DNA of 64,000 nt from an uncultured archaeon (lineage in GTDB: Archaea > Iainarchaeota > Iainarchaeia > Iainarchaeales > GCA-2688035). The notes under the pieces are model-generated. The model was not told the origin of the DNA, did no database searches, and saw only the letters and a program-made list of their open reading frames with translations. Location: the NCBI GenBank assembly GCA_964354805.1, contig CAYHBD010000042.1, positions 18,038-82,037 on the forward strand. Reading direction: 5' to 3'. This document shows, piece by piece, positions 1-18,335 of this stretch (within the stretch, counting starts at the first letter, position 1; every line of letters begins with the position of its first letter). Both the position numbers and the translations under genes were made by a program.

Positions 1-1430
1 TCCAATAGCCATAAATGCTCGTAGTTTTGCCCAGATTTGTCACGCACCTGTTTCCATCAACGTCTAAATTTGTCCTTATCGCTGTCCCGCTTCCCTGCGT
101 ACTTGTAGTGCTGTAATTGATGTCGGCATAGTGTATGCCGTAATTAACGTCGCCTGTTGCAACATTGAAGTCAATCGTTAAATTGCCGTCAACGGAATAA
201 GAGTAGGAAGGCATTGCAAAGCCAACATCGTGTCCATCAACATTCCAGACGTTTACATCGGGCACAGTGTTATCAACAGCAAAGCTCTTCTGCGTTGTCA
301 CAGTATTAGAATCAACGCCGTCTTTTATCTCAATCGTAACCCAATAATTGTTGTCGGCTATGCCTGAAATATTCCAGTCCCATTGGCACACCATCCCTGT
401 TTTTGCATTTGTATCACAGCTGCCAAAGCCAGCATTCGTGCTCAAATTGACGTCATTGATTATTCTCGTTGTCTTTGCATTCGCGCTTGCCCCATACCAC
501 ATATTAAAATTCAAATCATTGCTCTCATTATCATCAACCCTAAATTTTATCGCCAGATTCCCGTCTTTTACATAGCTGAATGCAGGCAGTGCTGCATTCA
601 AATCCCAGTTGTCCACTTTCCAGATGTTTGCATCCGGAGCCCTGTTTACAATGACCCTGAAGCTTTTTTGCGTTGTTGCAGTGTTTGAGTCAGTTCCATC
701 GTTGACTTCAATCGTAACCCAATAGTTGTTGTCAACAACAAACTGCCTGTGGATGTTGAAGTCCCATCGGCACACCATCCCTGTCGTTTTGCTGTTTGTA
801 TCGCATGCCCCCTTGATTGTGTTTGTGCTTAAATTTACGTCCCCAATTATTTTGTTCGTTTTAGCGTTTGCGCTCGTGCCATACCACATATTAAAATTCA
901 GGTCTTGCGTGCCATCAAGATCACTAGTTCTAAACTTTATTGTAAGGTTCCCATCTGTTTCATATTTGAACTTTGGCAGTGCTGCGTTGAAGTCTCTATT
1001 GTCCACTTTCCAGATATTAACATCAGGCACATTGTTTGCCGGTCCAGCAGGAGGATTCACCCTGAAGCTCTTCTGCGTTGTCACAGTGTTTGTATCGCTG
1101 CCGTCGTTTATTTCAACCGTAACCCAGTAATTGTTGTCGGAAACACCGGAAATATTAAAATCCCAGTTGCAAACCATCCCACTCTTGCTGTTTGTGTCGC
1201 ATGCCCCCTTGCTTGTGTTTGTGCTTAAATTTACGTCTCCAATTATTTTGTTTGTTTTACTGTTTGCGCTTATGCCATACCACATGTTGAAGTTCAAATC
1301 ATCATTGTCCTGGTCTGTTGCCCTGAACTTGATTGTAAGGTTTCCGTCAGATGCATAAGTGAAGGAAGGCATTGCCGCGTTCAGGTCAGAGGTTTCCACT
1401 TTCCAGATGGTTGCATTTGGCAAAGCGTTG
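1..1430 (-). repeat. four tandem ~125-135 aa (375-405 nt) beta-sandwich-like modules inside the giant CDS
   Basis: Repeated peptide PD(V/A)NIWKVDN.D.NAALP.F.Y..DGNL.IKFR..D....DLNFNMWYG.SAN.KT..I..DVNLSTN...G.CDTN.K.GMVC.WD.NI....NNYWVT.E.NDG.D.NT.TTQKSF. The nucleotide repeat aacccaRtaRttgttgtc recurs at ~340, ~715 and ~1120. Confidence 0.85.
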
Positions 1431-4400
1431 TATGTTATGAAGTTGTCGTCGAAAGAGAAGCGCTCTGCCCTCAGCCAGTTGCCGTCCCTTGCAATGCTTT
1501 GGATTCTTACCTCGTCAAGGTAGCCGTCAAAGTGGTCATCATTGAGAGTGTCCTTGCTGCCAATGCCCATGTTCCAGGTGTTTGAAACATTGCCGTCAGC
1601 GCCCGCGCTTGGGCCAACAACCCTGGTGCCATCTAGGTAAAGCGACTCGGTTGTATTTGCGGCATCCCTTACTCCAGCTATGTCGTGCCATAGGCTGTCA
1701 GGGACCTTTGTGTAATTGAGGTGATAGTCTATTCCATCCGGCCTTATGTTTAGATGGATGCTGTTGTTTGTTGCCTCATCCCCCCATTCTAGCTTCCACC
1801 AGTTGTTTGTGCCAGTGCAGCCTTTTCGCACTAGGTCTGAATCAGTCAGGGTTCTTCCTGTCTCTGCATTTGCCCTCACAGATAATGTGAAGCCGCCTAG
1901 TTCAAGGTTCAGGCTGTCGTTGTGTGGAACGCCAACATGGTCTCCATCCTGGTTTGTTATTGAAACAAAGAAAGGATAGTGGCCAAGGCCGTTTGCATCA
2001 GTGTTGTTTCTTGAGGTAATCCTCACTACGTTTGAATCGTTGTTGTTTGCTGTTGAATCAAAGTAGTTGCCGTCCAGCTCTGCAAAGTGGTAAACCGCCC
2101 TGTAGTTGCCGTCCCAAACCAGGGCATTGTTGTTGCCGTCTGTTGTACAGGGGTTTCCGTAGTCCATGTAAATGTAGTCTGTATTGGATGATTTGTCTAC
2201 TTTTGGAACCCTGACCCAGATCACGCTGTCCCCTGCCGTGTTCCAGTCATCTATTTCATAGTAAAGGGAGCTTCCGTCAGAATCGAAGAAGCGCAGGTCT
2301 CCGCCATTGCTTCTCCCAACCTTGCTGTAGTCAATCCTTGTTGGATCTAGTTTGACCATTACTGGGAAGTCGAACAGGTCACCGGTTTGGTAAATGTTTT
2401 TGAAATAAAGCTTCATCCTGTAGGGCCATGAGCCGGCGCACCAGATGTTAAAGTCTTTTTCCCCTGCATTGAAGTCAATATTATATCTGTCATTGACTGT
2501 TGTGAGAATATAGTAATTGCCTGCTTGCACTGAGGAAATGTTCCAGTTGTATTTGCAGTATCTTGCTGTGCTTAAATCATTGCTGTCGCAGTTTAAGGTA
2601 GCGAGATTCACGTCATTGATTATTGCAGTTCCGGTCCCTTGTGTTTGCGAGGAAGAATAATTCAGGTCAATGTTTAAATCAAATGAATTGTTGTCCAGAT
2701 CCCTTACATAAACATTGACGTCAATTGTTGGTGTAATATCCCTGTTGAAATTCTCGTCATTTTCAGGGTAAACAACATTGGCGTCAGGGCTTTGGTTTGA
2801 GGTTGTTATGGTGAAAGTGGCTTCTCCTGCATTGAAATCGCGGTTAGAGCCGTCGTTTACTTCTGAAAGAATATAGTAGTTGCCGTTTGGCACATTTGAA
2901 ATAGTCCATCGGTATTTGCAGTACTGCACTGTTTTAAGGTTGTTGCTGTCGCAGTTCCAGGTTGCAAGGTTTGAATCATCGACAATTACTGTTCCAGTGC
3001 CCTGGGTTTGGCTGGTTGAGTAATTGAGGTCAACTGTCATTGTAAAGGTGTTTGTATCATTGTCCTGGACAGTGATGTTGACATCAACCGTTGAAAGCAC
3101 ATCCCTGCTGAATGTTTCGCCTTTCTCAGGGTAAGCAACATTTGCGTCCGGCGTGGGTGTTGCAGCTGCAGCATTGCCAAAAGCAAAGTATAAAATCTCC
3201 CTGGCATTGCCGTCAACAGTTGTGTTGTTTACGGTAAATCCTGTTGAATCATTGGAAACGAAATCCATGTCCGCACCAAAAATTGGAGGACCTTCAACTA
3301 AAAATCTCAGGACTCTTGTCCTGTTTAAATCGGAATCAGCTACAGAAGTAGCTTTATTATCCAAATCGCCTGACCAGATGCTTCCTCTTTCAGAGGCACT
3401 TACTCCAACACCGAACGAAATTCTGCTCACTGATGAAACAGCGGCTGAGGTAGCGTTGCCCGCACTTTGGAATATTACCCCAGATGGCGTGAAACCAGTG
3501 GTTACAGATTGGTTGCCTGTTGAGGTTGCTTCATTAAAGCTGCCAGTATCATACTGCCCCCCTTTCAGGGCAATGTAATTTATGTAAACTGCGGTGCCGG
3601 GAGTTCCTGAAAAAGTAAGAGTGAATCCATTGGAATCCATTGACTTGATGACTGCTGTCCTTACTGCTACGCCTGTTCCACTTAAAGTGTTTTGGCATGA
3701 ATTAGTCCTTTGGTAACCATAGGTATTCGATACTCCAGTAGTTTGACTTTGTCTCATTGTGACGCGGCTATTTTGTTTTGTTGTTCCAACCACAAAACCT
3801 ATATTAAATGCATTATTGTTTACACTACCGGCTGCCGTAGGAGTAGTGGTAACTGTATTGTCAAAAATTATTAAAGCATCTGGCGTAAATCCCACACTTA
3901 CGGCTGTGTCAGCTACACCAGTTGGGGATAGAAAGCTTCCGACACTGGCATTCGTTAAATCGTCACCGCCCAATGCTATGTAATTGATTATTCTCTGCGA
4001 GGCATCGCAGGTTGTCCAGTTTATGGTAAAACCATCGGCATTCATTGACACAAAGTCTGCTTCGGCATTCACGAGGGAAGCAGCCCCAGTTCCCAGCGTG
4101 CTGACGCTTATTTGCGTTATGCATAAAGCGTTGCTCCACCTTTTTTTGCACGCAGCAATAACGTTATCTTTCGAAGCAGATGCTATCACAGCCCTCCGGG
4201 TAGAAGATGTAGCAGCCCCAAAAAACTCTTGCGCATTAACATCAGTGCCATCGGCGGTTTTATAATTGCCAAAGAAAATCACGAGTTTGGGTTGGAATCC
4301 AACACCGGTTATGGCCTGGTTTCCTGTTGTGGCATTGGGCTTGGCAAAGCTCCCGTATTTAACCAGCATTCCTGCTTGATTGTAAGCGTATTTTACGTCC

Positions 4401-5806
4401 TCTCCGAAAGTGAATTCCAGGGCGTGCTTTCCAGCCATCAAAACCTTGCTGGTTTCATAGCCTGTTTCATTGCATTCAAAGTTTCGGACAACAACAGCGC
4501 CGTCAATCCATTCGTATGGAATAACAGTTGAACCGCAGCGTATTTCCAAAAACCGCAATTGCTCTGAATCGCTTGAATTGCTCCAGGTTGTGCCGTTAAC
4601 CGCTTTTATTGCCAGGTCTGCTTTTCCAATTGTATTGAACCTGACTTCCCATTCCCCGCCAACTTGGGGATAGCTTTGCACGTTTATTATCGTGATTTCC
4701 GCGAAGCCAAAGACAGGGTCTTCTGGCGAAATGCTTATTGTTAGTGGTTCGTTGCCTGTGAAGGTTTTAACTGTCTGCCATTCTCCAGTGCAGCTGCTTG
4801 TTTCGCTGTTCCAGTCTTTGCATTTCAACACAGCGTTTGTCCCGCTTGGCGGTGAAAGCTGCAATTCGCCTGATGCAAATTCGCTTGCCGGATTTAACAG
4901 GAATGGCTTTTTTACTTCAATTCCGCTTTTTGTTTTGGTATTTTGCAGAAGCCGCAGCTCCAATAGGTTTGAATCGCCGCCTATTGCGGCTTTTCTGAGT
5001 ACTATTTTTTTAACTGAATTGTCGTCAATTTCCAATTCAACATCAAAGATTCCCTTGAATGCTTCCTCTTCGCCGGTTATTTCAGCCCCAAAAATTTCAG
5101 GTTTCTCTATTCCTGCTGTTGGCTGTTCTATGCTTCCTATAACAGCGCCATTTTCATCAATCAACCTCATTTTGTAGCCTATTTCTTTGCCTTCGCTGTC
5201 CTTTATGGAAACAGGGGGCAAAATCTTGGTTTCCTGCACTGATTCAATTATAACGCTTTCCTCTGCTTCTTCTCCCGTTTCTTCGATTATAACTATTTCC
5301 TCGCTTTCTGCCTTTGGCAAGTGCACGCATTTTGCTTCGCATGTTCCATCGTTGTTGCATAAATCAAGTGAAAGGGCGTTTGCGTCATCGCAGTCAATGT
5401 CGTTATTGCAGGCTATTTTGCATTCCGGCTGAATTAAAGCATTGGTGCAGTATGATTCGCAAGTGCCTTCATTATTGCATACATCAAGTGTTGCCGAATC
5501 CAAGTCATCGCAGTCTGAATCAGCACTGCAGGCTATCTCACATTCAGGCTGAACAGCTATGTTTGTACAATACGATTCGCAAGTGCCATCGCTGTTGCAT
5601 ACATCAATTGTTGTGGCTATCTTGTCATCGCAGCCTGAATCATTGTAGCAGGCAATTGCGCACCCTGGTGCATTCGCATCTGGGCCGTTGCCTAAGGCAG
5701 CGTATGCAAGCATTGTTGTGCTTATGGCTATCACAAGCAGCAGGAACAGCGCGCTTGAAACAATGCTGTGCCTGCCCTGCTGGCGCAGCAGCAATCGCCG
5801 TACCAA
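1..5806 (-). CDS. giant secreted or surface-anchored repeat protein (at least 1,930 aa; C-terminus lies beyond the left edge)
   Basis: My own reverse-strand translation gives one open frame from an in-frame TGA near 5878 down to position 1. It is absent from the ORF track because no stop is reached. The N-terminus VRRLLLRQQGRHSIVSSALFLLLVIAISTTMLAYA is a basic stretch plus a hydrophobic signal/anchor. There is no ATG upstream of the hydrophobic core; candidate starts are TTG 5806 or GTG 5875. Downstream come Cys-rich repeats, beta-modules, a DUF2341-like block (WPYRMKLYF..DLRFFDSDG..YYEIDDWN) plus a LamG-like block (..GYLDEVRI..), and Ig-like modules. Confidence 0.85.
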   Translation of the reverse strand, partial: MVRRLLLRQQGRHSIVSSALFLLLVIAISTTMLAYAALGNGPDANAPGCAIACYNDSGCDDKIATTIDVCNSDGTCESYCTNIAVQPECEIACSADSDCDDLDSATLDVCNNEGTCESYCTNALIQPECKIACNNDIDCDDANALSLDLCNNDGTCEAKCVHLPKAESEEIVIIEETGEEAEESVIIESVQETKILPPVSIKDSEGKEIGYKMRLIDENGAVIGSIEQPTAGIEKPEIFGAEITGEEEAFKGIFDVELEIDDNSVKKIVLRKAAIGGDSNLLELRLLQNTKTKSGIEVKKPFLLNPASEFASGELQLSPPSGTNAVLKCKDWNSETSSCTGEWQTVKTFTGNEPLTISISPEDPVFGFAEITIINVQSYPQVGGEWEVRFNTIGKADLAIKAVNGTTWSNSSDSEQLRFLEIRCGSTVIPYEWIDGAVVVRNFECNETGYETSKVLMAGKHALEFTFGEDVKYAYNQAGMLVKYGSFAKPNATTGNQAITGVGFQPKLVIFFGNYKTADGTDVNAQEFFGAATSSTRRAVIASASKDNVIAACKKRWSNALCITQISVSTLGTGAASLVNAEADFVSMNADGFTINWTTCDASQRIINYIALGGDDLTNASVGSFLSPTGVADTAVSVGFTPDALIIFDNTVTTTPTAAGSVNNNAFNIGFVVGTTKQNSRVTMRQSQTTGVSNTYGYQRTNSCQNTLSGTGVAVRTAVIKSMDSNGFTLTFSGTPGTAVYINYIALKGGQYDTGSFNEATSTGNQSVTTGFTPSGVIFQSAGNATSAAVSSVSRISFGVGVSASERGSIWSGDLDNKATSVADSDLNRTRVLRFLVEGPPIFGADMDFVSNDSTGFTVNNTTVDGNAREILYFAFGNAAAATPTPDANVAYPEKGETFSRDVLSTVDVNITVQDNDTNTFTMTVDLNYSTSQTQGTGTVIVDDSNLATWNCDSNNLKTVQYCKYRWTISNVPNGNYYILSEVNDGSNRDFNAGEATFTITTSNQSPDANVVYPENDENFNRDITPTIDVNVYVRDLDNNSFDLNIDLNYSSSQTQGTGTAIINDVNLATLNCDSNDLSTARYCKYNWNISSVQAGNYYILTTVNDRYNIDFNAGEKDFNIWCAGSWPYRMKLYFKNIYQTGDLFDFPVMVKLDPTRIDYSKVGRSNGGDLRFFDSDGSSLYYEIDDWNTAGDSVIWVRVPKVDKSSNTDYIYMDYGNPCTTDGNNNALVWDGNYRAVYHFAELDGNYFDSTANNNDSNVVRITSRNNTDANGLGHYPFFVSITNQDGDHVGVPHNDSLNLELGGFTLSVRANAETGRTLTDSDLVRKGCTGTNNWWKLEWGDEATNNSIHLNIRPDGIDYHLNYTKVPDSLWHDIAGVRDAANTTESLYLDGTRVVGPSAGADGNVSNTWNMGIGSKDTLNDDHFDGYLDEVRIQSIARDGNWLRAERFSFDDNFITYNALPNATIWKVETSDLNAAMPSFTYASDGNLTIKFRATDQDNDDLNFNMWYGISANSKTNKIIGDVNLSTNTSKGACDTNSKSGMVCNWDFNISGVSDNNYWVTVEINDGSDTNTVTTQKSFRVNPPAGPANNVPDVNIWKVDNRDFNAALPKFKYETDGNLTIKFRTSDLDGTQDLNFNMWYGTSANAKTNKIIGDVNLSTNTIKGACDTNSKTTGMVCRWDFNIHRQFVVDNNYWVTIEVNDGTDSNTATTQKSFRVIVNRAPDANIWKVDNWDLNAALPAFSYVKDGNLAIKFRVDDNESNDLNFNMWYGASANAKTTRIINDVNLSTNAGFGSCDTNAKTGMVCQWDWNISGIADNNYWVTIEIKDGVDSNTVTTQKSFAVDNTVPDVNVWNVDGHDVGFAMPSYSYSVDGNLTIDFNVATGDVNYGIHYADINYSTTSTQGSGTAIRTNLDVDGNRCVTNLGKTTSIYGYW
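2440..3150 (-). repeat. two further copies of a related ~120 aa module, N-terminal to the DUF2341/LamG block
   Basis: PDANV.YPE....F.RD....(V/I)DVN..V.D.D.N.F....DLNYS.SQTQGTGT.I..D.NLAT.NCDSN.L....YCKY.W.IS.V..GNYYIL..VND. Nucleotide similarity at ~2510 vs ~2877 (period ~365 nt). Confidence 0.8.
3165..4350 (-). repeat. three ~115-130 aa modules with signature GF.P..(V/I)IF ... (S)M(D/N)..GFT.N ... (I)NYIAL(G/K)GG
   Basis: Seen in my translation: TGVGFQPKLVIFFG..SMNADGFTINWT..IINYIALGGDD; SVGFTPDALIIFDN..SMDSNGFTLTFS..YINYIALKGGQ; TTGFTPSGVIFQSA..SNDSTGFTVNNT..ILYFAFGNAA. Confidence 0.7.
5335..5690 (-). repeat. three tandem 120-nt (40 aa) Cys/Asp-rich repeats
   Basis: The peptide C.IAC..D.DCDD.....(T/S).D.CN..GTCE..C........PE occurs three times. 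The nucleotide anchor gattcgcaagtgcc(t/a)tc lies at 5453 and 5573, with a degenerate copy at ~5341. Confidence 0.85.
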
Positions 5807-5846
5807 AAAATTGCAAGGCTGCCTGCTTGCATCAATTGCAGGGTGC

Positions 5847-6227
5847 CTACCTTGTTGCTGCGGCAATTTTCGCACCCCCTGTCATAGTTTGTTGGTTGGG
5901 CTTTTGTTTTGCAGAGCAAAACTCTTTTTTCCCAAGGCTTTTGCACTGTAGTGCAAAAGGCTTTTGTTTTGCAAACGGCAATTCTTTTGCTTCCAGCGCT
6001 ACAGGCGCAGTGCTGCTTTGCTCTATTCTGATGCATTTGCCCCTTGGGATAATTGTAGGCCTGCTGTTGCTGTTTTCAATTACCATCAGGTTGAATGAGT
6101 CGAAATCGAAGAATTTGCCTTCTTTGAATGAAACTGTGTTGGCTGTGTCGTTGTAGAAAACGCTTATCTCTTTTCCAAGTATTTCAAACAGCAGCTTGTC
6201 CTCCTTTTTGCCGTTCATTGCCCGCAT
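5847..6227 (-). CDS. Sm/LSm-like small protein, paralog 2, with an aberrant C-terminal tail
   Basis: The core MNGKKEDKLLFEILGKEISVFYNDTANTVSFKEGKFFDFDSFNLMVIENSNSRPTIIPRGKCIRIE is collinear with the upstream 74-aa paralog. The pattern resembles Sm1/Sm2 (G.l..fD..mNl.l.......ir...I..I). The track start at 6353 overlaps the upstream gene; ATG 6227 or 6218 fit the paralog's N-terminus. The ~55 aa tail crosses a palindromic element. Confidence 0.5.
   Translation of the reverse strand: MRAMNGKKEDKLLFEILGKEISVFYNDTANTVSFKEGKFFDFDSFNLMVIENSNSRPTIIPRGKCIRIEQSSTAPVALEAKELPFAKQKPFALQCKSLGKKEFCSAKQKPNQQTMTGGAKIAAATR
5925..5963 (-). repeat. palindromic element family A, copy 1
   Basis: Minus-strand reading: AAGCCTTTTGCACTACAGTGCAAAAGCCTTGGGAAAAAA. 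It lies in the 3' tail of ORF 5847..6353 and just upstream of the giant gene's start. Confidence 0.8.
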
Positions 6228-6313
6228 TCTGAAGATTGCCTTGGTTGAACGCTGCGCTGTCATTGGCTTGCCCCCTGCAATTTGAGGCACTGCCTTGGTT
6301 GAATGCTGAACGC

Positions 6314-6538
6314 TCATTGCTGTTCCTCTCCCGCTACTTCTATTCTTATGCATTTGTCTCTCGGGATGAGCGTTGGCTTGTTGTTGCTGTTTTCAAGTAT
6401 CTTTAAATTGCTGTTGTCAAAGTCGAGGAAGGTGCCGACTTTGAAAGAAACGGATTCAAAGGTATCATTATAGAAAATAGAGACTATTTTCCCCAAGCTA
6501 TCGCTGAGTAGCTTGTCCTTTCTATACTCCACCAACAA
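6314..6538 (-). CDS. Sm/LSm-like small protein, paralog 1
   Basis: 74 aa: KLLSDSLGKIVSIFYNDTFESVSFKVGTFLDFDNSNLKILENSNNKPTLIPRDKCIRIE. The assignment to an Sm-like fold rests on pattern only. Confidence 0.5.
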   Translation of the reverse strand: MLVEYRKDKLLSDSLGKIVSIFYNDTFESVSFKVGTFLDFDNSNLKILENSNNKPTLIPRDKCIRIEVAGEEQQ

Positions 6539-6559
6539 CCCCCAACCAAGAAGGACGTA

Positions 6560-13457: not shown

Positions 13458-14192
13458 TCACAGTTTTTTTGTGAATTCCAGGATGAATTCGCTTTGTAGC
13501 GCGCGCATTTTTCTCATGGCTGCTTTTGCCACCTCTTTGTTTCCTTTTTCTGCCGCTGCATACATTTCATGCGCGGTTCCATGAATTTTCCATTTTAAAT
13601 CATTTGCTTTTTTTATTTCTTCCTGCGGACATTCAAGCAAATGCATTCTCTTTATTGTGGCGTTTGTAATAAGGGACTTTGGGCTGCCGTATTGCATTGC
13701 AACCCTTAAAATTTCGTCGTAAAATTTTCCCCGCCCGCAGTTCATTACTTGGGAAATAACTTTTTGCGGCACTCTCCTTTCATACCAGTTTTCAATGTGT
13801 TGTATAAGGGTCTCAAAAGATATTGTCTTGTTTGCGAAATCCTTCAGGTACCTCTTTAAGGTCGTAAAGGCAACAGGCGCAGCAAACACCCTCACAGCGG
13901 TTGCAACTGACAATGGCTTTGTTTCATTCAGTTGGCAAAGCCTCCTGATTACTTTCCTGCCTGCCCTTGGCTCCACTTCAAGAAAACGCGCTATTGTTGA
14001 AGCCGCATTTCTTACAATCATTTTTCTTTTTTTATTTTTTGCAATGCTCAGAAGCAATTCAATTGCTCTCGGCGTGTTCAAAACAGGGGCCCTCTTCAGC
14101 AACCTTGCCAAAGCCAATACTGTTTCTTTCACATGCCTCGGCTTCGCCGGCCGCCCAAGCCTTAATTTCGTCGGGTTAGCTAATTCATGCAT
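13458..14192 (-). CDS. hypothetical protein (helical, basic)
   Basis: A 244-aa ORF with a coherent, non-repetitive sequence. I recognise no motif. Confidence 0.5.
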   Translation of the reverse strand: MHELANPTKLRLGRPAKPRHVKETVLALARLLKRAPVLNTPRAIELLLSIAKNKKRKMIVRNAASTIARFLEVEPRAGRKVIRRLCQLNETKPLSVATAVRVFAAPVAFTTLKRYLKDFANKTISFETLIQHIENWYERRVPQKVISQVMNCGRGKFYDEILRVAMQYGSPKSLITNATIKRMHLLECPQEEIKKANDLKWKIHGTAHEMYAAAEKGNKEVAKAAMRKMRALQSEFILEFTKKL

Positions 14193-14220
14193 TCGCAGTT
14201 ACACCTTGCAATAAATACAT

Positions 14221-14339
14221 TGGGCCCGGAGAGACTCGAACTCTCGACCCTTGGTGCGCTAACAGGGCAACAAGATGCCGAAATGAATTCACTCATCACC
14301 CTGCTATAAGACCAATGCTCTGCCGCTAAGCTACGGGCC
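14221..14339 (-). tRNA. tRNA-Ile (anticodon UAU as read) with a 48-nt intron after position 37
   Basis: Hand fold: GGGCCCG-TA-GCTT-AGCGGCA-GAGC-A-TTGGT-CTTATA[intron 14256..14303]C-ACCAA-GGGTC-GAGAG-TTCGAGT-CTCTC-CGGGCCC-A. All four stems pair. Confidence 0.8.
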
Positions 14340-14340
14340 C

Positions 14341-14440
14341 TACTCGGCAAATTCCGAGAGCCGGCAAATTCCGGCTGTGAATTAAGCCCATACTTCGCTT
14401 CGCTCTGTATGGGCTGTGCTCGGCTTTCGCCTCGCATTAA
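14341..14440 (-). repeat. upstream module family B, copy 1 (directly 5' of tRNA-Ile(UAU))
   Basis: Minus-strand reading: AATGCGAGGCGAAAGCCGAGCA...TTAATTCACAGCCGGAATTTGCCGGCT. The same two blocks occur on the plus strand at 47040..47165. Confidence 0.7.
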
Positions 14441-14601
14441 ATAGAAAGTGGAATTGTTTAAGTATTTAATTAAGGCAGTAAAATCAGGTTCGGCCCGGTA
14501 TCCGTGAATCGCCTTTTATTGTTTTCATTCAGTTTTCACTTTTGCCAAAATGTCTTTTTCGCTTAAAATTATTTTACCCGTTTTGTTTTCATTCATTTTT
14601 T

Positions 14602-15024
14602 TCATTTTGCCGAAAGCGATTTTTCGCTTAAATTATTCTCTTTGTTGATTTGGCCTATTTCTTCGGGCGCTTCCTCCATTTTGCCGTATCTTCCAATGTT
14701 CAACCGAACACTATTTTTGAATGTCGAGGCATAGCCGTTTGCTATTTTGTATGTTTTTCCCAGCTGGATTGAATCAATTGCATCATCCCAGAGCGTGAGC
14801 AGAATGCATCCGCTTTCATCTCCAACCAATGCTTCGGCAACTTTGTGGCTGCTGTTGTCAAGCCTGCCAGTGACCTCGCGTGGCTCGCCTTTTTCCTCCA
14901 CTCTGATGACTACGTCAATTCTTTTTCCGAATGGCTTTATTTCGCTGACGTTCATTGCAGCACCTGTAAAACGATTAAGAACTGTAATTTTTTTAAATGA
15001 AACTGTTTTTCGGCGTTTTCCCAT
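14602..15024 (-). CDS. single OB-fold ssDNA-binding (RPA/SSB-like) protein
   Basis: IDVVIRVEEKGEPREVTGRLDNSSHKVAEALVGDESGCILLTLWDDAIDSIQLGKTYKIANGYASTFKNSVRLNIGRYG follows the short archaeal RPA OB pattern. ATG 14955 (MNVSEIKP) is a plausible true start. Confidence 0.65.
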   Translation of the reverse strand: MGKRRKTVSFKKITVLNRFTGAAMNVSEIKPFGKRIDVVIRVEEKGEPREVTGRLDNSSHKVAEALVGDESGCILLTLWDDAIDSIQLGKTYKIANGYASTFKNSVRLNIGRYGKMEEAPEEIGQINKENNLSEKSLSAK

Positions 15025-15100
15025 TTAAATTTTAAAAACATTCAATTTCAAAAAAATAAGCATAGGTAGCCCTAATTAAAAGTAAATAAAAAGAAAAGAA

Positions 15101-15128
15101 AAAAGGGTTAACTTAAACCCTTTTTTTA
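15101..15128. terminator. hairpin with flanking A/T runs
   Basis: AAAAAAGGGTT-aactt-AAACCCTTTTTTT, lying between two minus-strand genes. Confidence 0.5.
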
Positions 15129-15845
15129 CTTCAATGATTTTTTCAGGTCAACTGCCATTTTTCTGATGTCTTCTTTGAAAGCCATCAGGCAAACTACTCC
15201 AAGAACAACCGCTGTCACACAAGCGAATGCAACTATGAACGGCCCGATGAACAGATTCAGGTAGTCTTTTAACACGCCCATTGTGTCCTTGCCCAGAATC
15301 ATTGTCAATGCAAGGATGCCTGTGAACAAAATAATGATTCCCTCTGCCAAAGCCGCTGCCATTTTCTTGAACTTGTGCTGTGTTACCTCAATTGAATTCT
15401 TGGCGTATCTTCCAAGCAGCAATCCGCCTACAAATACAAGAATGCCGCCCAAGACACCGGGTATGTAGTAAACCAAAGCTGTCAGGAACTGCTGCAATGC
15501 GCTCAATTTGACATTCTCAGCTGCCGCAGCCAAGAACAGCACAATGATGTACCACTTGACCAAACTGCCTGCCAATGCGCTGACCTCTTTGCCGCCGATT
15601 GCGGCTGAAAGGTTCTGCTCGTCAATCCACTGGTCGACTCTTGTGCTCTGCAGCAATTTGATGACAATCTGCTTCAGAATTTTTCCGATAATCCAACCGA
15701 TCAGGATTATAATCGTTGCACCAATCAGTGAAAGAACAACAGGAATACTGTCAATGACAAGTTTTTTCCCGGCCTCCTGTAACCCAGCATAGAATGCTGC
15801 CCAAACCTCAGCTAATATGTTACCATCAGCCATGAATTGAATCAC
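15126..15845 (-). CDS. multi-pass membrane protein (conserved-TM-helix / MscS N-terminal-like repeats)
   Basis: 239 aa with about five hydrophobic helices and a repeated K.I..LL...(V)D motif. Confidence 0.55.
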   Translation of the reverse strand: MIQFMADGNILAEVWAAFYAGLQEAGKKLVIDSIPVVLSLIGATIIILIGWIIGKILKQIVIKLLQSTRVDQWIDEQNLSAAIGGKEVSALAGSLVKWYIIVLFLAAAAENVKLSALQQFLTALVYYIPGVLGGILVFVGGLLLGRYAKNSIEVTQHKFKKMAAALAEGIIILFTGILALTMILGKDTMGVLKDYLNLFIGPFIVAFACVTAVVLGVVCLMAFKEDIRKMAVDLKKSLK

Positions 15846-15870
15846 CGATAGGAAAAAGGCTTTGTTGTTT

Positions 15871-16401
15871 TTAAATCTTGCGCATCAATTCGTCAATCGC
15901 CTTATTCAAATCGTTTAAAGACGAATTGTTTGCGATAGTACGGCTAGCGCTGTCTATTACTTTCTGCAAATCGAATTTTAGCAGGTTGTGCTTGTCCCTT
16001 TCAAAGAACGCTTCTTTGCTCTGGACATCCAAATCTGTTCTTCTCTCAAAGCGCTTGTCGGAATCTGCTTTCACTGCAATCAGGACAAATTTCTTCGAGC
16101 TTTTTTTAAGGTATTTCACTTCATCCAGTGACTGAATTCCTGAGAAGACAACCCGCTTCCATGCCTGGGCTTTAGCTTTCTGGACAACCCTTTTCGCAAG
16201 CACGTCATTGCCCTCCTTCTCCCTCATTTCAACTCCAAGCAGGCTCCTGTTCATCTTTGTGTCAGGCCTGCCCTGCCTTCTCAGCTCTGTTGCAAGCACA
16301 TCGCTTAAAACAAGCTTGTGGAAACCGTGCTTCTCAACAAGGCGGTCTGCGACAGAATCCTTGCCGCTTCTCGCAAGACCTGTTACTGCAATTGCAAACA
16401 T
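15871..16401 (-). CDS. P-loop nucleotide/nucleoside kinase (dephospho-CoA kinase / UPF0200-like)
   Basis: The N-terminal Walker A is IAVTGLARSGKDSVA. Its 176-aa size is typical of small archaeal kinases. Confidence 0.6.
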   Translation of the reverse strand: MFAIAVTGLARSGKDSVADRLVEKHGFHKLVLSDVLATELRRQGRPDTKMNRSLLGVEMREKEGNDVLAKRVVQKAKAQAWKRVVFSGIQSLDEVKYLKKSSKKFVLIAVKADSDKRFERRTDLDVQSKEAFFERDKHNLLKFDLQKVIDSASRTIANNSSLNDLNKAIDELMRKI

Positions 16402-16459
16402 GAAAACAAGGGTAATAAGAACTTATTAATAATTTAATTCTCGCCCAAAAATCGGATTA

Positions 16460-16690
16460 AACAGGATATGAAAATGAAAAATGAATTAAAAGCAAACAAA
16501 AAATTGGAAAAAAAAGAAAAAGAAAAAAGCAGGGGAAATTGAAAATTAAAAAAAAGAAAAATGGAAAAAAACAGGAAAAATTAGAAAATAAAAAAACACC
16601 GAAAATTAAAAAAAATGGAAAAAACAGGAAAAATGGAAAATTAAAAAAAGAAAGCAGAAAGAAAAGAATTAGAAAAAAAAGAAAAAAAGG
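16460..16690. repeat. A-rich (T-rich on the coding strand) low-complexity tract 3' of the thermosome gene
   Basis: GGAAAAA(A)CAGGAAAAAT occurs twice, GAAAATTAAAAAAA(A) recurs, and GGGAAATTGAA is shared with 6560..6900. Confidence 0.7.
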
Positions 16691-16694
16691 AGAT

Positions 16695-18335
16695 TTACAT
16701 CTCCATGTCTCCCATTCCGCCTGGAGGCATTCCGCCCATTGGCGGACCCTTGCTTTTGCTGTTCCCTGCAATAATGTCATCAATGCGCAGAATCATTTCC
16801 GCAACCTCTGTTCCGCTGGTGATTGCCTGCAGCTTCACTGACAATGGCTCAATAACATTTGCTGCACGCATATCAGAAAGCTTCTGCTTGAATACGTCAA
16901 CTCCAATGTATTTGCCTTCCTTTGCCTTGTGCCTTGCCCTAAGGTTAACGATTGTTTCAAGCGGGTCCATTCCTGCTGTTTCAGCCAAGGTCCTTGGAAT
17001 TTCCTCCAGGGTTTCTGCAAAGGCGTCAATTGCCAACTGCTCCTTGCCTCCGATGGTTTGAGCATATTCGCGCAGCCTTACTGCCACTTCAGCCTCAATG
17101 CTGCCTCCGCCTGCCACAATCTTTCCGTCCTTAAGCACGTCAGCAACACTCATTAGGCCGTCGTGCACTGCTCTTTCAACTTCGTCAATAACATGCTCCG
17201 AGCCTCCCCTTATCAGCAGTGAAACGCTTTTCGGGTTTTTGCATCCTTCCACAAAAACCATTTCATCGCCTGCAATCTTTCTTTCTTCAACCAGGGCAGC
17301 TTTTCCAAGGTCGCTTGCGCTCAAATCATTTATTCTTGAAACAACCTTTCCCTTTGTTGCCCTTGCCAATGCCTCCATGTCTGACTGCTTTACTCTTCTT
17401 ACTGCAGCAATTCCTTCTTTTGCAAGGAAGTGCTGTGCCAGGTCATCAATTCCTTTCTGGCATACAACAAAATTTGCTCCGGATTGCTTTATTTTTTCAA
17501 CCATCTTGCGCAGCATTGCTTCCTCCTGGTCAACGAATGCCTGCATTTGGTCCGGGCTTGTTATCTCAATCTTTGCGTCTGTCTCTGGCTCTTTTATCTC
17601 TAAAGCAGAATCAATCAAGGCAATTTTTGCCTCTTTCACTCTTTTCGGCATTCCGCTGTGGACAATCTCCTTGTCAATTATTATCCCCTGGACAAGCTTG
17701 CTTTCGCCCAATGCTGCCCCCTGCTTTTTCTCAACCTTTACATTGTCAATATCAACGATGGTTTTTCCTTCAACCTCTTCGGCAACAGCGTTGATTGCAT
17801 TCACAACCAGGTCAACAAGCGCTTCAGCTGATTCAGCGACCTTTCCAGTCATTGTTGTCAGGGCAATGTTGCGTAGCATCTTGCTGTCGTTTTTTTCAAT
17901 TGAATCAGCAGTATTGTTCAAAATCTCTTTTGCCTTTTTTGCAGCCTCCCTGTAGCCCTTGATTATAATGCTTGGGTGAATCTCGTCATCCAGCATTTTT
18001 TCAGCATTCTTAAGCAATGTGCCTGATATTATAACAGCTGTTGTTGTTCCATCGCCAACCTCTTCATCCTGCGTTTTTGCAACTTCAACCATCATTTTTC
18101 CTGCGGGGTGGTCAATGCTCATTTCCCCCAGAATTGTTGCGCCATCGTTGCTTATTGTAACATCCCCAAGCTCGTCAACAATCATTTTGTCCATTCCCTT
18201 TGGCCCAAGAGTGCTCTTTACCGCGTTTGCAACCGCCTTTGCAATCAGAATGTTTATTCTCTGGGCGTCCCTGCCCCTGGTCCTCTTTGTCCCTTCGGAC
18301 AAAAACATAATTGGTTGTTGTGATGCGTCAGCCAT
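16695..18335 (-). CDS. ths: thermosome subunit (group II chaperonin)
   Basis: 546 aa. [29 protein letters not shown] and the C-terminal [13 protein letters not shown] tail are all present. Confidence 0.95.

Follow-up and report, generated by a model that had tools for sequence, protein, structure and literature searches.

A predicted giant surface protein of a Diapherotrites archaeon contains a YadA-head fibre with its own start signals

One minus-strand frame of the window (the whole 64,000-nt stretch analysed, C42:18038-82037) has no stop codon from 2 to 5875; with 1,935 codons counted from TTG 5806 (1,958 from GTG 5875), it runs out across the window edge. What does so long a frame encode in a small archaeal genome, and does it specify one protein or two? 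The genome, a metagenome bin of the Iainarchaeota (Diapherotrites), comprises 1.38 Mb in 49 contigs. The initial annotation had described a protein of at least 1,930 aa with a non-ATG start, cut by the window edge, and had proposed that the contig be extended to recover the C-terminus, naming hidden frameshifts as grounds for rejection. Extension placed the stop at C42:13494, 4.5 kb beyond the window, for a total of 3,449 residues from TTG 5806, with no frameshift or internal stop within the frame; at 10.3 kb this stop-free gene is the longest frame of the whole genome. All three candidate starts are indeed non-ATG: TTG 5806, with which a homologue Met aligns, so that this start is backed by homology; TTG 5866, with GGGGGTG six bases upstream, used in the public gene call (unnamed, 3,469 residues); and GTG 5875. 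The gene is already called in public data, and its reported absence from the list of open reading frames was merely a window-edge effect. Three look-alike plus-strand ORFs had also been ascribed to the repeats. Of these ORFs, antisense to the Ig-like B repeats, only 383-688 and 905-1228 resemble each other (43% over 60 residues); 726-1130 is in a different frame and matched neither.

Table 1. Features of the giant gene and its leader. Positions refer to the window unless marked C42 (window coordinate = C42 coordinate minus 18037).
Feature	Residues	Position	Strand	Remarks
5' leader, three copies of hairpin repeat		5899..5990	-	GGCTTTTG..CAAAAGCC
Start and N-terminal signal peptide (predicted)	1-41	5684..5806	-	MVRRLLLRQQGRH, hydrophobic core, then AYA↓A
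Three 40-residue Cys/Asp-rich repeats	45-165	5312..5674	-	6 Cys each, 120-nt period
Acidic Glu/Ile-rich linker	166-270	4997..5311	-	
Beta-rich region	271-484	4355..4996	-	Common to homologues P0004 and P0006
GF.P triple module, 3 repeats	485-900	3107..4354	-	All-beta, DUF7483-like by structure
Two Ig-like A modules	901-1137	2396..3106	-	57% identical, paired Cys in each
DUF2341	1167-1252	2051..2308	-	E = 7.6e-13
Laminin_G_3 / concanavalin-A-like lectin domain	1288-1440	1487..1945	-	E = 4.9e-12
Three Ig-like B modules	1457-1850	257..1438	-	65-73% identical, paired Cys in each
Fourth Ig-like B module, in-window start	from 1851	1..256	-	
Fourth Ig-like B module split by nested Laminin_G_3		C42 17253-18293	-	
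Cys-rich cap and membrane-proximal domain		C42 16482-17252	-	
Membrane helix TM1	2455-2476	C42 16416-16481	-	Invariant CTTAT
Fibre start signals		C42 16392-16409	-	GGAGGTGA + 7 nt + ATG of Met 2484
Basic loop / leader		C42 16197-16415	-	73 residues
Second signal-peptide-like segment		C42 16134-16196	-	Ends VAA↓IPELF
Conserved N-terminal domain of fibre		C42 15804-16133	-	
Repeat shaft		C42 14154-15803	-	Chlorovirus glycoprotein repeat
YadA-like head		C42 13749-14153	-	
Conserved tip and stop codon		C42 13494-13748	-	Cys-clamped

Nearly all modules first read off the in-window part held up: the three Cys/Asp-rich repeats, the acidic linker (Glu 20.8% across residues 170-270), the three GF.P modules, the two Ig-like modules (A copies) and the DUF2341-like plus LamG-like block were all recovered (Table 1). 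The Cys/Asp-rich repeats matched no known family in a family search and have paralogues on contigs C6 and C28; the beta-rich region gave no family match, and the leader hairpin repeat belongs to the mobile hairpin family of the genome studied. At least four further Ig-like modules with paired Cys had been claimed, of which three are full B copies while the fourth is split by a second, nested Laminin_G_3 (residues 1996-2139, 8e-25). Modelling supports an Ig-like sandwich for the B modules at the level of fold class. The whole protein has three hydrophobic segments (residues 15-33, 2455-2476 and 2550-2570). The first, originally taken for a signal anchor, is followed by AYA↓A and looks like a cleavable signal peptide rather than an anchor (both AxA sites were judged by eye); the real anchor would be the helix at 2455-2476, outside the window. 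With archaeal housekeeping genes around the locus, homologues that carry the name Candidatus Diapherotrites, and lectin-type and Ig-like modules, the view of a giant modular surface protein in a small-genome archaeon stood, and these predictions support a secreted, membrane-anchored protein of a DPANN member.

The GF.P module, previously called unfamiliar, turned out to belong to a very large, unnamed family whose members are for the most part free-standing proteins encoded on viral contigs, next to tail genes. Its three repeats make up a single all-beta, pseudo-threefold unit of ~400 residues (predicted structure with pLDDT 91.9 and pTM 0.90), and viral proteins, a DUF7483 protein among them, are matched by the model with a probability of 0.99-1.0; the Pfam DUF7483 profile itself found no match in the giant protein. 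At least 66 viral contigs encode stand-alone homologues of about 400 residues; one such homologue is flanked by a tail-fibre gene and a gene that matches a tail-assembly chaperone. A search of GenBank phages returned no match. The best cellular matches are giant proteins of CPR/Patescibacteria, with 51-55% identity over the whole length.

Beyond the window, TM1 is directly followed by RTKK and the loop, whose pI of 10.0, against 4.5-4.8 for both arms, fits the positive-inside rule. The second signal-like segment has a hydrophobic core of 13 residues and a Pro in its c-region; at the AxA↓IPELF site, relatives invariably have Ala at -1, Pro-Glu at +2/+3 and a small residue at -3, which makes a genuine signal-peptidase site before IPELF likely. 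The 879 residues after this site form the fibre, with a shaft scoring 30.6 bits against Chlorovi_GP_rpt (PF06598; cut-off 27) and a head in which the YadA_head profile matches five stretches (1.3e-16). By sequence, the head also matches the solved adhesin heads of BpaC (7o23, 4.5e-10), YadA (1p9h) and CbpF, as well as 3s6l.

At nine of nine loci (five with the fibre fused to the N-terminal arm, four with it standing alone), the conserved fibre ATG is preceded at 6-9 nt by an exact GGAGGTGA, which among the fused loci occurs in two different codon phases, with spacers of 7 or 8 nt. In the genome studied, 10 of the 24 GGAGGTGA sites stand before the start codon of an ORF with 60 residues or more, and only the fibre site falls inside a long frame. 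In all eight aligned loci, CTTAT is invariant 35-39 nt upstream of the fibre start signals; the ninth, L095, stands outside that alignment and lacks any CTTAT within 60 nt of its Shine-Dalgarno sequence, and the fibre paralogues in G066 are without it too. CTTAT is coding in the fused loci (FAY, in the TM1 helix) and non-coding in the stand-alone ones. It probably acts as a TATA-like promoter lying within the TM1 codons, but could instead be left over from TM1 coding sequence. The C-terminal third of the frame, out of reach of the initial annotation, reads as a functional unit apart: a putative YadA-head fibre that carries a ribosome-binding site and a start codon of its own.

In five independent assemblies (the genome studied, G075/P0006, L094/P0005, L095/P0160 and L096/P0163), a single frame runs from the N-arm through TM1, the loop and the signal segment into the fibre, and it is kept despite the change in Shine-Dalgarno phase, the 7/8-nt spacers and a 96-nt insert in P0160. 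The giant frame of L094 has one in-frame TAG, so this copy may be decaying. At the syntenic locus of G062 the fibre stands alone, immediately after the same Sm-like pair, and stand-alone fibres are also found in G068, G069 and G065. Fusion is rare, occurring in 2 of the phylum's 215 species genomes, and may be merely tolerated rather than advantageous.

Our preferred reading, which we hold with slightly better than even confidence, is that the frame is the precursor of a cell-surface attachment apparatus with two units, produced in fused form and also as free fibre. The precursor would have a mass of 373 kDa, with units that are separate genes, or found alone, in relatives. The first unit, the N-arm (residues 1-2476), would begin with a Sec-type signal peptide followed by an acidic ectodomain of 2,400 residues. 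From the far end inward, it would present the Cys/Asp repeats, the acidic linker and the virus-type triple beta module; toward the membrane would follow Ig-like spacers, DUF2341, two concanavalin-A-like lectins (one nested inside an Ig-like loop) and the membrane-proximal domain, before the arm terminates in one membrane helix and RTKK. The second unit, the fibre from Met 2484, would consist of a 66-residue basic leader, the signal-peptide-like segment ending AxA and, from IPELF, the mature fibre with repeat shaft, YadA-like head and Cys-clamped tip. Since no stop separates the units, ribosomes starting at the N-arm would read through and yield the fusion, with both arms extracellular and the basic loop cytoplasmic, while the exact Shine-Dalgarno sequence, the ATG and the probable TATA-like promoter of the fibre lead us to propose that free fibre is made as well. 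Cleavage by signal peptidase is probable after each of the AxA sites, as is trimerisation of the fibre via its YadA-like head; the likely ligands of the lectin, virus-like and head modules are glycans or proteins carried by another cell or surface.

It is possible, though we lean clearly against it, that the protein is left uncleaved and that the second segment is a membrane helix, so that two helices and the cytoplasmic loop, which may contact a cytoplasmic partner, hold lectin arm and fibre side by side as a hairpin anchor. Frame continuity in five lineages is consistent with such an anchor, as are the conserved LGKIAxLKK and LC(I/R)S motifs, which suggest that the loop has a function of its own, and the 60-85-residue leader retained by stand-alone fibres, far longer than a signal-peptide n-region usually is. 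Yet the short core, the c-region Pro and the invariant small residues at -3/-1 are typical of cleaved signal peptides, and related fibres carry ordinary short, cleavable ones, ending SFA↓IP, at the same position. We consider it unlikely that two functionally separate proteins are encoded and that the fusion product is absent or of no consequence, with the N-arm transcript or its translation ending before the fibre through some hidden mechanism, or read-through being a neutral accident left in place by selection. Although the fibre retains complete start signals and stands alone in most relatives, and the N-arm-type proteins P0004 and P0007 end right after a membrane helix and a basic tail, none of the five fused loci has a stop at the junction despite indels, phase change and insertion there. 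Moreover, the TGA within GGAGGTGA is out of frame in all five, which avoid the spacers that would place it in frame, whereas three of the four stand-alone loci have it in frame; and in the genome studied the stretch from TM1 to the fibre ATG contains no oligo-T run.

We also doubt that the protein is a structural, S-layer-like component of the cell envelope or a matrix, with lectin and Ig-like modules that would bind the glycosylated envelope of the cell itself into one. The membrane anchor, the many Ig-like modules, one structural match to the Deinococcus HPI S-layer, the eight frames of >1,900 codons in the genome and the cluster of signal-peptide proteins downstream would suit that role, but module number and order vary widely in relatives (2 to 13 Ig-like A copies), and the N-arm is absent from the same locus of a sister genus, which would be odd for a core component of the envelope. 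In the trimeric autotransporters and tail fibres where they have been studied, YadA-type heads and phage-tail-type modules serve as binding devices. A provirus tail-fibre region in place of a cellular gene is very improbable: the nearest named or contextual relatives of the triple module and shaft repeats are viral and the fibre has weak PHROG matches, yet synteny ties the locus to the housekeeping genes for thermosome, IleRS and deoxyhypusine synthase across two genera, a Pfam scan of 19 neighbour genes gave no match to a capsid, portal, terminase or integrase, and the predicted signal peptides and membrane anchors of the protein are typical of cellular surface proteins. An assembly artefact (chimeric join, collapsed repeat or missed stop), conceivable for a repetitive gene in a 49-contig bin, can practically be dismissed, since the same junction and architecture recur in four further assemblies, produced by different projects, the 10.3 kb run without a stop, and the intragenic repeats have diverged too far in DNA (at most 86-93% identity over ≤300 nt; 93% over 95 nt) for repeat collapse to be likely.

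The fibre-plus-head plan is common to the giant protein and the trimeric autotransporter adhesins (YadA, BpaC; type Vc secretion), the YadA_head repeats exceeding the Pfam cut-off and the head matching solved heads by sequence. However, the fibre is without a C-terminal beta-barrel anchor and there is no outer membrane; it also points the other way, its head lying close to the membrane-distal C-terminus, and export is by signal peptide; and the giant protein is archaeal, whereas the autotransporter class has been described as exclusively bacterial (PMC3417366). Fibre or tail proteins of phages and algal viruses resemble it in the PF06598 shaft and in the triple module, whose model matches DUF7483-type proteins from uncultured Caudovirales at 1.0, but here these modules sit in a cellular, signal-peptide-bearing and apparently membrane-anchored protein in a housekeeping neighbourhood. 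The CPR/Patescibacteria giant proteins with the triple module (in Saccharibacteria and Staskawiczbacteria MAGs; P0014 has 3,935 residues) likewise come from ultra-small organisms, and in P0013 and P0015 a DUF2341 plus LamG block also follows it; these carriers are bacterial, however, their remaining modules are of other kinds (fn3, LysM, phosphatase), and a fused fibre occurs in none of the four examined at full length (P0011, P0013, P0014, P0015). In polyproteins with internal signal peptides, such as the flavivirus structural polyproteins, signal peptidase separates the ectodomains. By analogy, alternating membrane segments of one frame would put successive ectodomains outside, with cleavage predicted in the giant protein; the two share no homology, and here the downstream unit has its own start signals.

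Within DPANN, the "SPEARE" giant surface proteins of Nanohaloarchaeota (SVXNc_0300, BNXNv_0298; PMC10266531, citing Hamm et al. 2019) are, as far as that account goes, alike in being the largest gene of a tiny genome, in combining a Sec signal peptide with a very large, acidic, membrane-bound ectodomain that has Ig-like modules, and in being proposed for host contact; LamG-rich surface proteins are reported from SPEARE-bearing genomes too (PMC10266531). At 3.4 k residues the giant protein is shorter than SPEARE (5-9 k; PMC10266531); unlike SPEARE, it shows no VirB4/TraG-like ATPase and no coiled-coil tip by Pfam, and its GF.P triple unit, DUF2341 and YadA-head fibre differ from the SPEARE modules described there. 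A nested, independently signalled fibre gene is likewise not part of the SPEARE description in PMC10266531 on which we draw. The domain content of the giant protein may point to attachment to a host cell. It belongs with the already known DPANN giant surface proteins, and the nested fibre gene is the new part.

A stop-free frame on the minus strand covers bases 2-5875 of the window and is still open at the window edge; followed into the rest of the contig (C42, of which the window is 18038-82037, so that window positions equal C42 positions minus 18037), it reaches its stop at C42:13494, which recovers the C-terminus that the initial annotation had left truncated. Read from TTG 5806, the giant protein has 3,449 residues (373 kDa). 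Its frame is the longest in the source genome (1.38 Mb, 49 contigs), where eight frames exceed 1,900 codons (one each on C42, C8, C9 and C10, four on C35) and account for about 65 kb, nearly 5% of the 1.38 Mb. A non-ATG start had been predicted, and TTG 5806 lines up with the first Met of a homologue; the public gene call begins at TTG 5866, six bases downstream of a GGGGGTG, and gives an unnamed product. The gene had also been described as missing from the ORF track: the window did cut it, but it is publicly called, with 3,469 residues. Hidden frameshifts, which would have undermined the reading, are judged unlikely, as is repeat collapse, because the internal repeats are diverged at the DNA level (at most 86% identical over 300 nt and 93% over 95 nt).

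Features of the giant protein and of its gene, from the N-terminus to the stop codon
Feature	Residues	C42 coordinates	Strand	Remarks
Hydrophobic core, then AYA/A	15-33			read from sequence
Cys/Asp repeats, three of 40 residues	45-165			six Cys each
Linker	166-270			20.8% Glu over 170-270
GF.P modules, three	485-900
Ig-like A modules, two	901-1137			57% identical
DUF2341 (PF10102)	1167-1252			7.6e-13; 49.2 bits, gathering cut-off 23.4
Laminin_G_3 (PF13385)	1288-1440			4.9e-12; 46.7 bits (1253-1460 piece), cut-off 27.6
Ig-like B modules, three	1457-1850			65-73% identical
Fourth Ig-like B with nested Laminin_G_3	1851-2197	17253-18293	minus
Cys-rich cap and membrane-proximal domain	2198-2454	16482-17252	minus
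Membrane helix TM1, then RTKK	2455-2476	16416-16481	minus
Basic loop or leader	2477-2549	16197-16415	minus
GGAGGTGA, 7 nt, ATG of Met 2484	around 2484	16392-16409	minus
Second hydrophobic segment	2550-2570	16134-16196	minus	end SPLVAA/IPELF
Fibre, conserved N-terminal domain	2571-2680	15804-16133	minus
Repeat shaft	2681-3230	14154-15803	minus
YadA-like head	3231-3365	13749-14153	minus
Conserved tip and stop codon	3366-3449	13494-13748	minus

The modules inside the window agree almost item by item with the list first drawn up from the sequence, on family, repeat and sequence evidence. On the whole giant protein Laminin_G_3 scores 88.2 bits against a gathering cut-off of 27.6, with its best stretch at 1996-2139 (8e-25); this stretch splits the fourth Ig-like B module, profile positions 1-92 and 86-127 matching on either side of it, and the nested LamG domain is placed in the loop between the paired Cys. 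The homologue P0005 is arranged alike. The A and B modules form one superfamily, present in 2 to 13 copies across homologues. A structural model of one B module (pLDDT 79.9, nine strands, beta structure) found NPC2, a PKD domain, an S-layer domain and beta-2-microglobulin as best PDB matches (probability 0.9-1.0, TM 0.4-0.58, E at least 7.6e-3), and as modelled Ig-like B is an Ig-like (E-set) beta sandwich at the level of fold class only. Neither a profile of the Ig-like modules (22 sequences) nor the Cys/Asp repeats matched any PDB sequence; NCBIfam gave nothing for the in-window part of the protein, and PHROGs nothing for pieces of the N-arm (residues 1-2476). No module of the giant protein was found in the other giant frames of the source genome at E <=1e-5, and the only matches in that genome outside the giant gene are Cys/Asp repeats (on C6 and C28), one LamG-type match downstream on C42 and a 25-codon relic of the tip. 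The minus strand of contig C6 (1991-4435 and 4609-6579) encodes two paralogous membrane-anchored proteins of 815 and 657 residues with 8-10 copies of an unnamed 37-residue six-Cys repeat related to the Cys/Asp repeats of the giant protein. Opposite the Ig-like B repeats, two plus-strand ORFs (window 383-688 and 905-1228) are alike, with 43% identity over 60 residues; the look-alike antisense ORFs attributed to the repeats thus number two, not three, and they are shadows of the giant gene, not genes.

The three GF.P modules had been called unfamiliar, and this holds insofar as no domain library names them: Pfam, NCBIfam, PHROGs and PDB sequences gave no match. It does not hold for relatives, of which there are thousands, with 3,881 among 1.84 billion cluster representatives at E <=1e-3 and 720 at <=1e-30. 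The best 150 of the 3,881 are mostly 400-430 residues long, and each of the six relatives examined at full length contains all three repeats (five lack a signal peptide); since such stand-alone proteins span all three, we treat the modules as one unit, the triple module. Its model, built with 74 sequences, is all-beta (pLDDT 91.9, pTM 0.90). Foldseek against the PDB returned only low-probability jelly-roll, galectin and LamG-type matches, none of them convincing, whereas ten predicted viral proteins matched at probability >=0.99. The top match, a DUF7483 protein of an uncultured Caudovirales phage, has probability 1.0 and E = 2e-9 but a global TM of just 0.24, and the Pfam DUF7483 model matched neither the whole protein (E up to 1) nor one module (E up to 10), so the triple module is by sequence not a member, and what likeness to DUF7483 there may be is one of modelled structure. 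No paper mentioning DUF7483 was found in a literature search. The triple module is found on at least 66 IMG/VR viral contigs; on one of them it sits between a gene matching a tail-assembly chaperone and a gene for a tail fibre, and portal and internal-virion genes are close by. No relative was present among GenBank phages, and PHROGs did not match any of eight stand-alone triple-module proteins. Among species genomes the module is spread over many phyla of bacteria and archaea, and MAGs of CPR bacteria (Saccharibacteria, Staskawiczbacteria) have its closest copies (51-53%). In three giant proteins that represent library clusters (P0014, at 55%, P0013 and P0015) it is internal.

Beyond the window the N-arm ends in a membrane-proximal domain that is kept in relatives and in the helix TM1, and the frame then runs through the basic loop into a fibre that makes up the last 879 residues. 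The 550 residues of diverged repeats in the shaft match the Chlorovirus glycoprotein repeat (PF06598) in four stretches when searched alone (30.6 bits, cut-off 27); the whole protein reaches only 14.6 bits. The head matches YadA_head (PF05658) in five stretches (1.3e-16, 60.9 bits against a cut-off of 25) and resembles solved heads, namely those of BpaC (7o23, 4.5e-10), YadA and CbpF. Of 215 genomes in the phylum, 14 have YadA_head repeats above the Pfam cut-off, nine of these being in this family. The tip, which ends in ...NRLCFPSNSCEMYIDYNGTAFVFGS, is common to other fibres of the family, and the last 84 residues of the giant protein matched no domain family. The N-terminus and residues 2550-2570 each combine a basic n-region, a core of 10-15 residues and small residues at -3/-1, features that we judged directly from the sequence and an alignment of four homologues and that fit Sec and signal peptidase I. 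With these signal-peptide features, the Ig-like fold and the YadA_head matches, the protein has both a probable secretion signal and adhesin-like content, as had been proposed for it.

N-arm, helix, loop, signal-like segment and fibre lie in one frame in five independent assemblies: the source genome, G075 (protein P0006), the JGI contigs L094 (P0005) and L096 (P0163) and the NCBI contig L095 (P0160, GCA_030692205.1), whose protein is the closest relative, at 69% identity. A search of 215 genomes from the phylum gave matches across the whole junction in G075 and the source genome only; the remaining 27 matching genomes mostly matched just the leader-plus-fibre part. In the sister-genus genome G062 a fibre gene of 1,639 residues without an N-arm directly follows a pair of small Sm-like ORFs, in the syntenic order thermosome, kinase, channel, synthetase, deoxyhypusine synthase, two membrane proteins, Sm-like pair and fibre gene. 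Upstream of the stand-alone fibres of G068, G069 and G065 there is no long frame and no N-arm gene. A junction open by chance was considered and rejected: by our estimate 73 codons stay free of stops with p of about 0.03, and the junction is open in all five assemblies. The loop of P0160 carries two in-frame copies of a mobile hairpin repeat of this lineage (+32 and +15 residues). That the fused frame has come through a shift of phase, altered spacers and an insertion of 96 nt argues that selection favours, or at least tolerates, the fusion product. Three copies of the same repeat (AAAGCCTTTTGC..GCAAAAGCCTTGGGAAAA) lie in the 5' leader of the giant gene (window 5899-5990). At L094 the giant frame has at least 4,652 codons with a single in-frame TAG (6306-6308) inside a LamG domain; the halves on either side of it form one frame, called as two genes.

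At the same time, the fibre carries start signals of its own. The exact sequence GGAGGTGA stands 6-9 nt upstream of a conserved ATG, here that of Met 2484, at all nine loci, five fused and four stand-alone. Three of the five fused loci read it as GGA GGT GAA (Gly-Gly-Glu) and the other two as xxG GAG GTG AAA (Glu-Val-Lys); because it occurs in two codon phases, it is kept as nucleotides rather than as peptide. The source genome has 24 such sites, ten of which lie before a start codon with 60 or more open codons, and of these only the fibre start has a long open frame upstream. We also considered a stop hidden in GGAGGTGA, which includes a TGA, and rejected it, as spacers of 7, 7, 7, 8 and 8 nt put the TGA out of frame at every fused locus; in three of the four stand-alone loci (9, 9 and 6 nt) it is in frame. 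Further upstream, 35-39 nt before GGAGGTGA, a CTTAT (consensus TT..CTTATTTG) is invariant in the eight aligned loci (the nine without L095), being coding in the fused loci (Phe-Ala-Tyr, in the membrane helix) and non-coding in the stand-alone ones. Its position would suit a TATA-like element of archaeal type followed by a 25-30 nt leader, which makes it a candidate promoter; it may instead be a relic, because the fibre paralogues of G066 lack it.

The locus thus has one frame, three Sec-type hydrophobic segments and a conserved internal ribosome-binding site and start. The charge pattern, with a loop pI of 10.0 against 4.5-4.8 in the flanking parts, predicts that the two large parts lie outside and the loop inside. 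Such a gene may yield two products, the 3,449-residue fusion and a free fibre precursor of 966 residues. Signal peptidase would cut after AYA41 and after VAA2570, with predicted mature starts ALGNGPDANAPG... and IPELFTVQGR; at the second site Ala at -1 and Pro-Glu at +2/+3 are invariant, and related fibres have short signal peptides ending SFA/IP. Once cut, the N-arm would stay anchored by its helix, and the released fibre would remain associated with the surface and may trimerise in the manner of YadA-type heads. The distal Cys/Asp repeats, the triple module, the LamG domains and the head with its tip may then bind glycans or proteins of another cell. A role of the Cys/Asp repeat as a tip module fits because it is membrane-distal in both contexts seen, at the N-terminus of the C-anchored arm and at the C-terminus of the G062 fibre. 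In the latter (L023, G062:C1, 2387-7318) one C-terminal Cys/Asp repeat (QPCDIACANDADCDDSNTLTIDICNNDGECKSYC) replaces the CEMYIDYNGTAFVFGS tip.

In its fullest form the two-product reading is that of a programmed gene, in which a promoter and ribosome-binding site within the TM1 codons give the free fibre, read-through gives a fibre tethered to the membrane-anchored lectin arm, and mixed trimers fix the fibre to the cell; we give this version a low chance. Alternatively, the protein may stay uncleaved, as two arms anchored by a hairpin, or the locus may make two functionally separate proteins, with read-through irrelevant. An envelope-structural role is a further rival to binding. The earlier reading as a host-attachment adhesin is supported in part: lectin, Ig-like, virus-type and adhesin-head modules are present, and from them we infer a function in binding or attachment. 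A viral origin of the locus and an assembly artefact are both unlikely, because two genera keep the locus in synteny with housekeeping genes and the same junction occurs in five assemblies.

These neighbours are archaeal (deoxyhypusine synthase, a class I tRNA synthetase, an Ssb-like OB protein and thermosome), and close homologues of the giant protein carry the name Candidatus Diapherotrites archaeon. The giant gene is directly preceded, on the minus strand (window 5990-6540), by two tandem small Sm-like ORFs, the same pair as before the G062 fibre, with the pattern ..SVFYNDT..VSFK.G.F.DFD..NL..ENSN..PT.IPR.KCIRIE; a 168-residue ORF that includes the downstream copy (window 5847-6353) had no Pfam match. 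On the downstream side, seven co-oriented minus-strand ORFs with hydrophobic, signal-peptide-like N-termini occupy C42 1-11402, just one of which Pfam matches, as a 738-residue Laminin_G_3 protein. A search of the source genome for a second fibre copy found only the 25-codon relic. It belongs to a 192-bp direct duplicate, 84% identical (C42 11691-11882 and 13384-13572, upstream of window base 1), that comprises the last 25 codons of the giant gene and its 3' flank and could be the remains of a second fibre gene or an insertion footprint. The copies flank an AAA_14/DUF4143 gene in the opposite orientation (C42 12048-13316), downstream of the giant gene, and AAA_14/DUF4143 genes also adjoin a related giant gene on L093.

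Among known systems, the DPANN Nanohaloarchaeota have giant Ig-like surface proteins and separate LamG-rich surface proteins, for which host contact has been proposed (PMC10266531). The giant protein is like the SPEARE-type proteins in its signal-peptide-bearing giant ectodomain, its Ig-like modules and its DPANN genome, but has none of their special domains, and Pfam finds no ATPase (VirB4/TraG-like; PMC10266531). With trimeric autotransporter adhesins (type Vc), a class called exclusively bacterial (PMC3417366), it shares YadA-like head repeats; on the other hand, Pfam finds no YadA_anchor beta-barrel in the whole protein (E up to 1), it belongs to an archaeon without a Gram-negative outer membrane, and its polarity is reversed. 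It is not a trimeric autotransporter. In a limited literature search, no paper turned up that describes a fibre gene lying in frame inside a giant surface gene.

The leading candidates for the means by which ultra-small DPANN archaea grip other cells are giant surface proteins, almost none of which is, to our knowledge, understood; for one there is now a concrete module map, with parts shared with viruses (the tail-associated triple module and Chlorovirus-type repeats), CPR bacteria and bacterial adhesins (the YadA-type head). If the programmed two-product reading is true, the shares of tethered and shed fibre would depend on the ratio of two promoters, coding sequence would serve as promoter too, and a DPANN attachment organelle would arise from a cellular "polyprotein" that contains an internal signal peptide. 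The main interest lies in two things. One is the virus-shared family of beta modules, which has no name, comprises thousands of sequence clusters and escapes current domain libraries. The other is the nested architecture, a rare one in which a gene complete with its ribosome-binding site, its start codon and probably its promoter sits in frame within a larger gene and is conserved across lineages.
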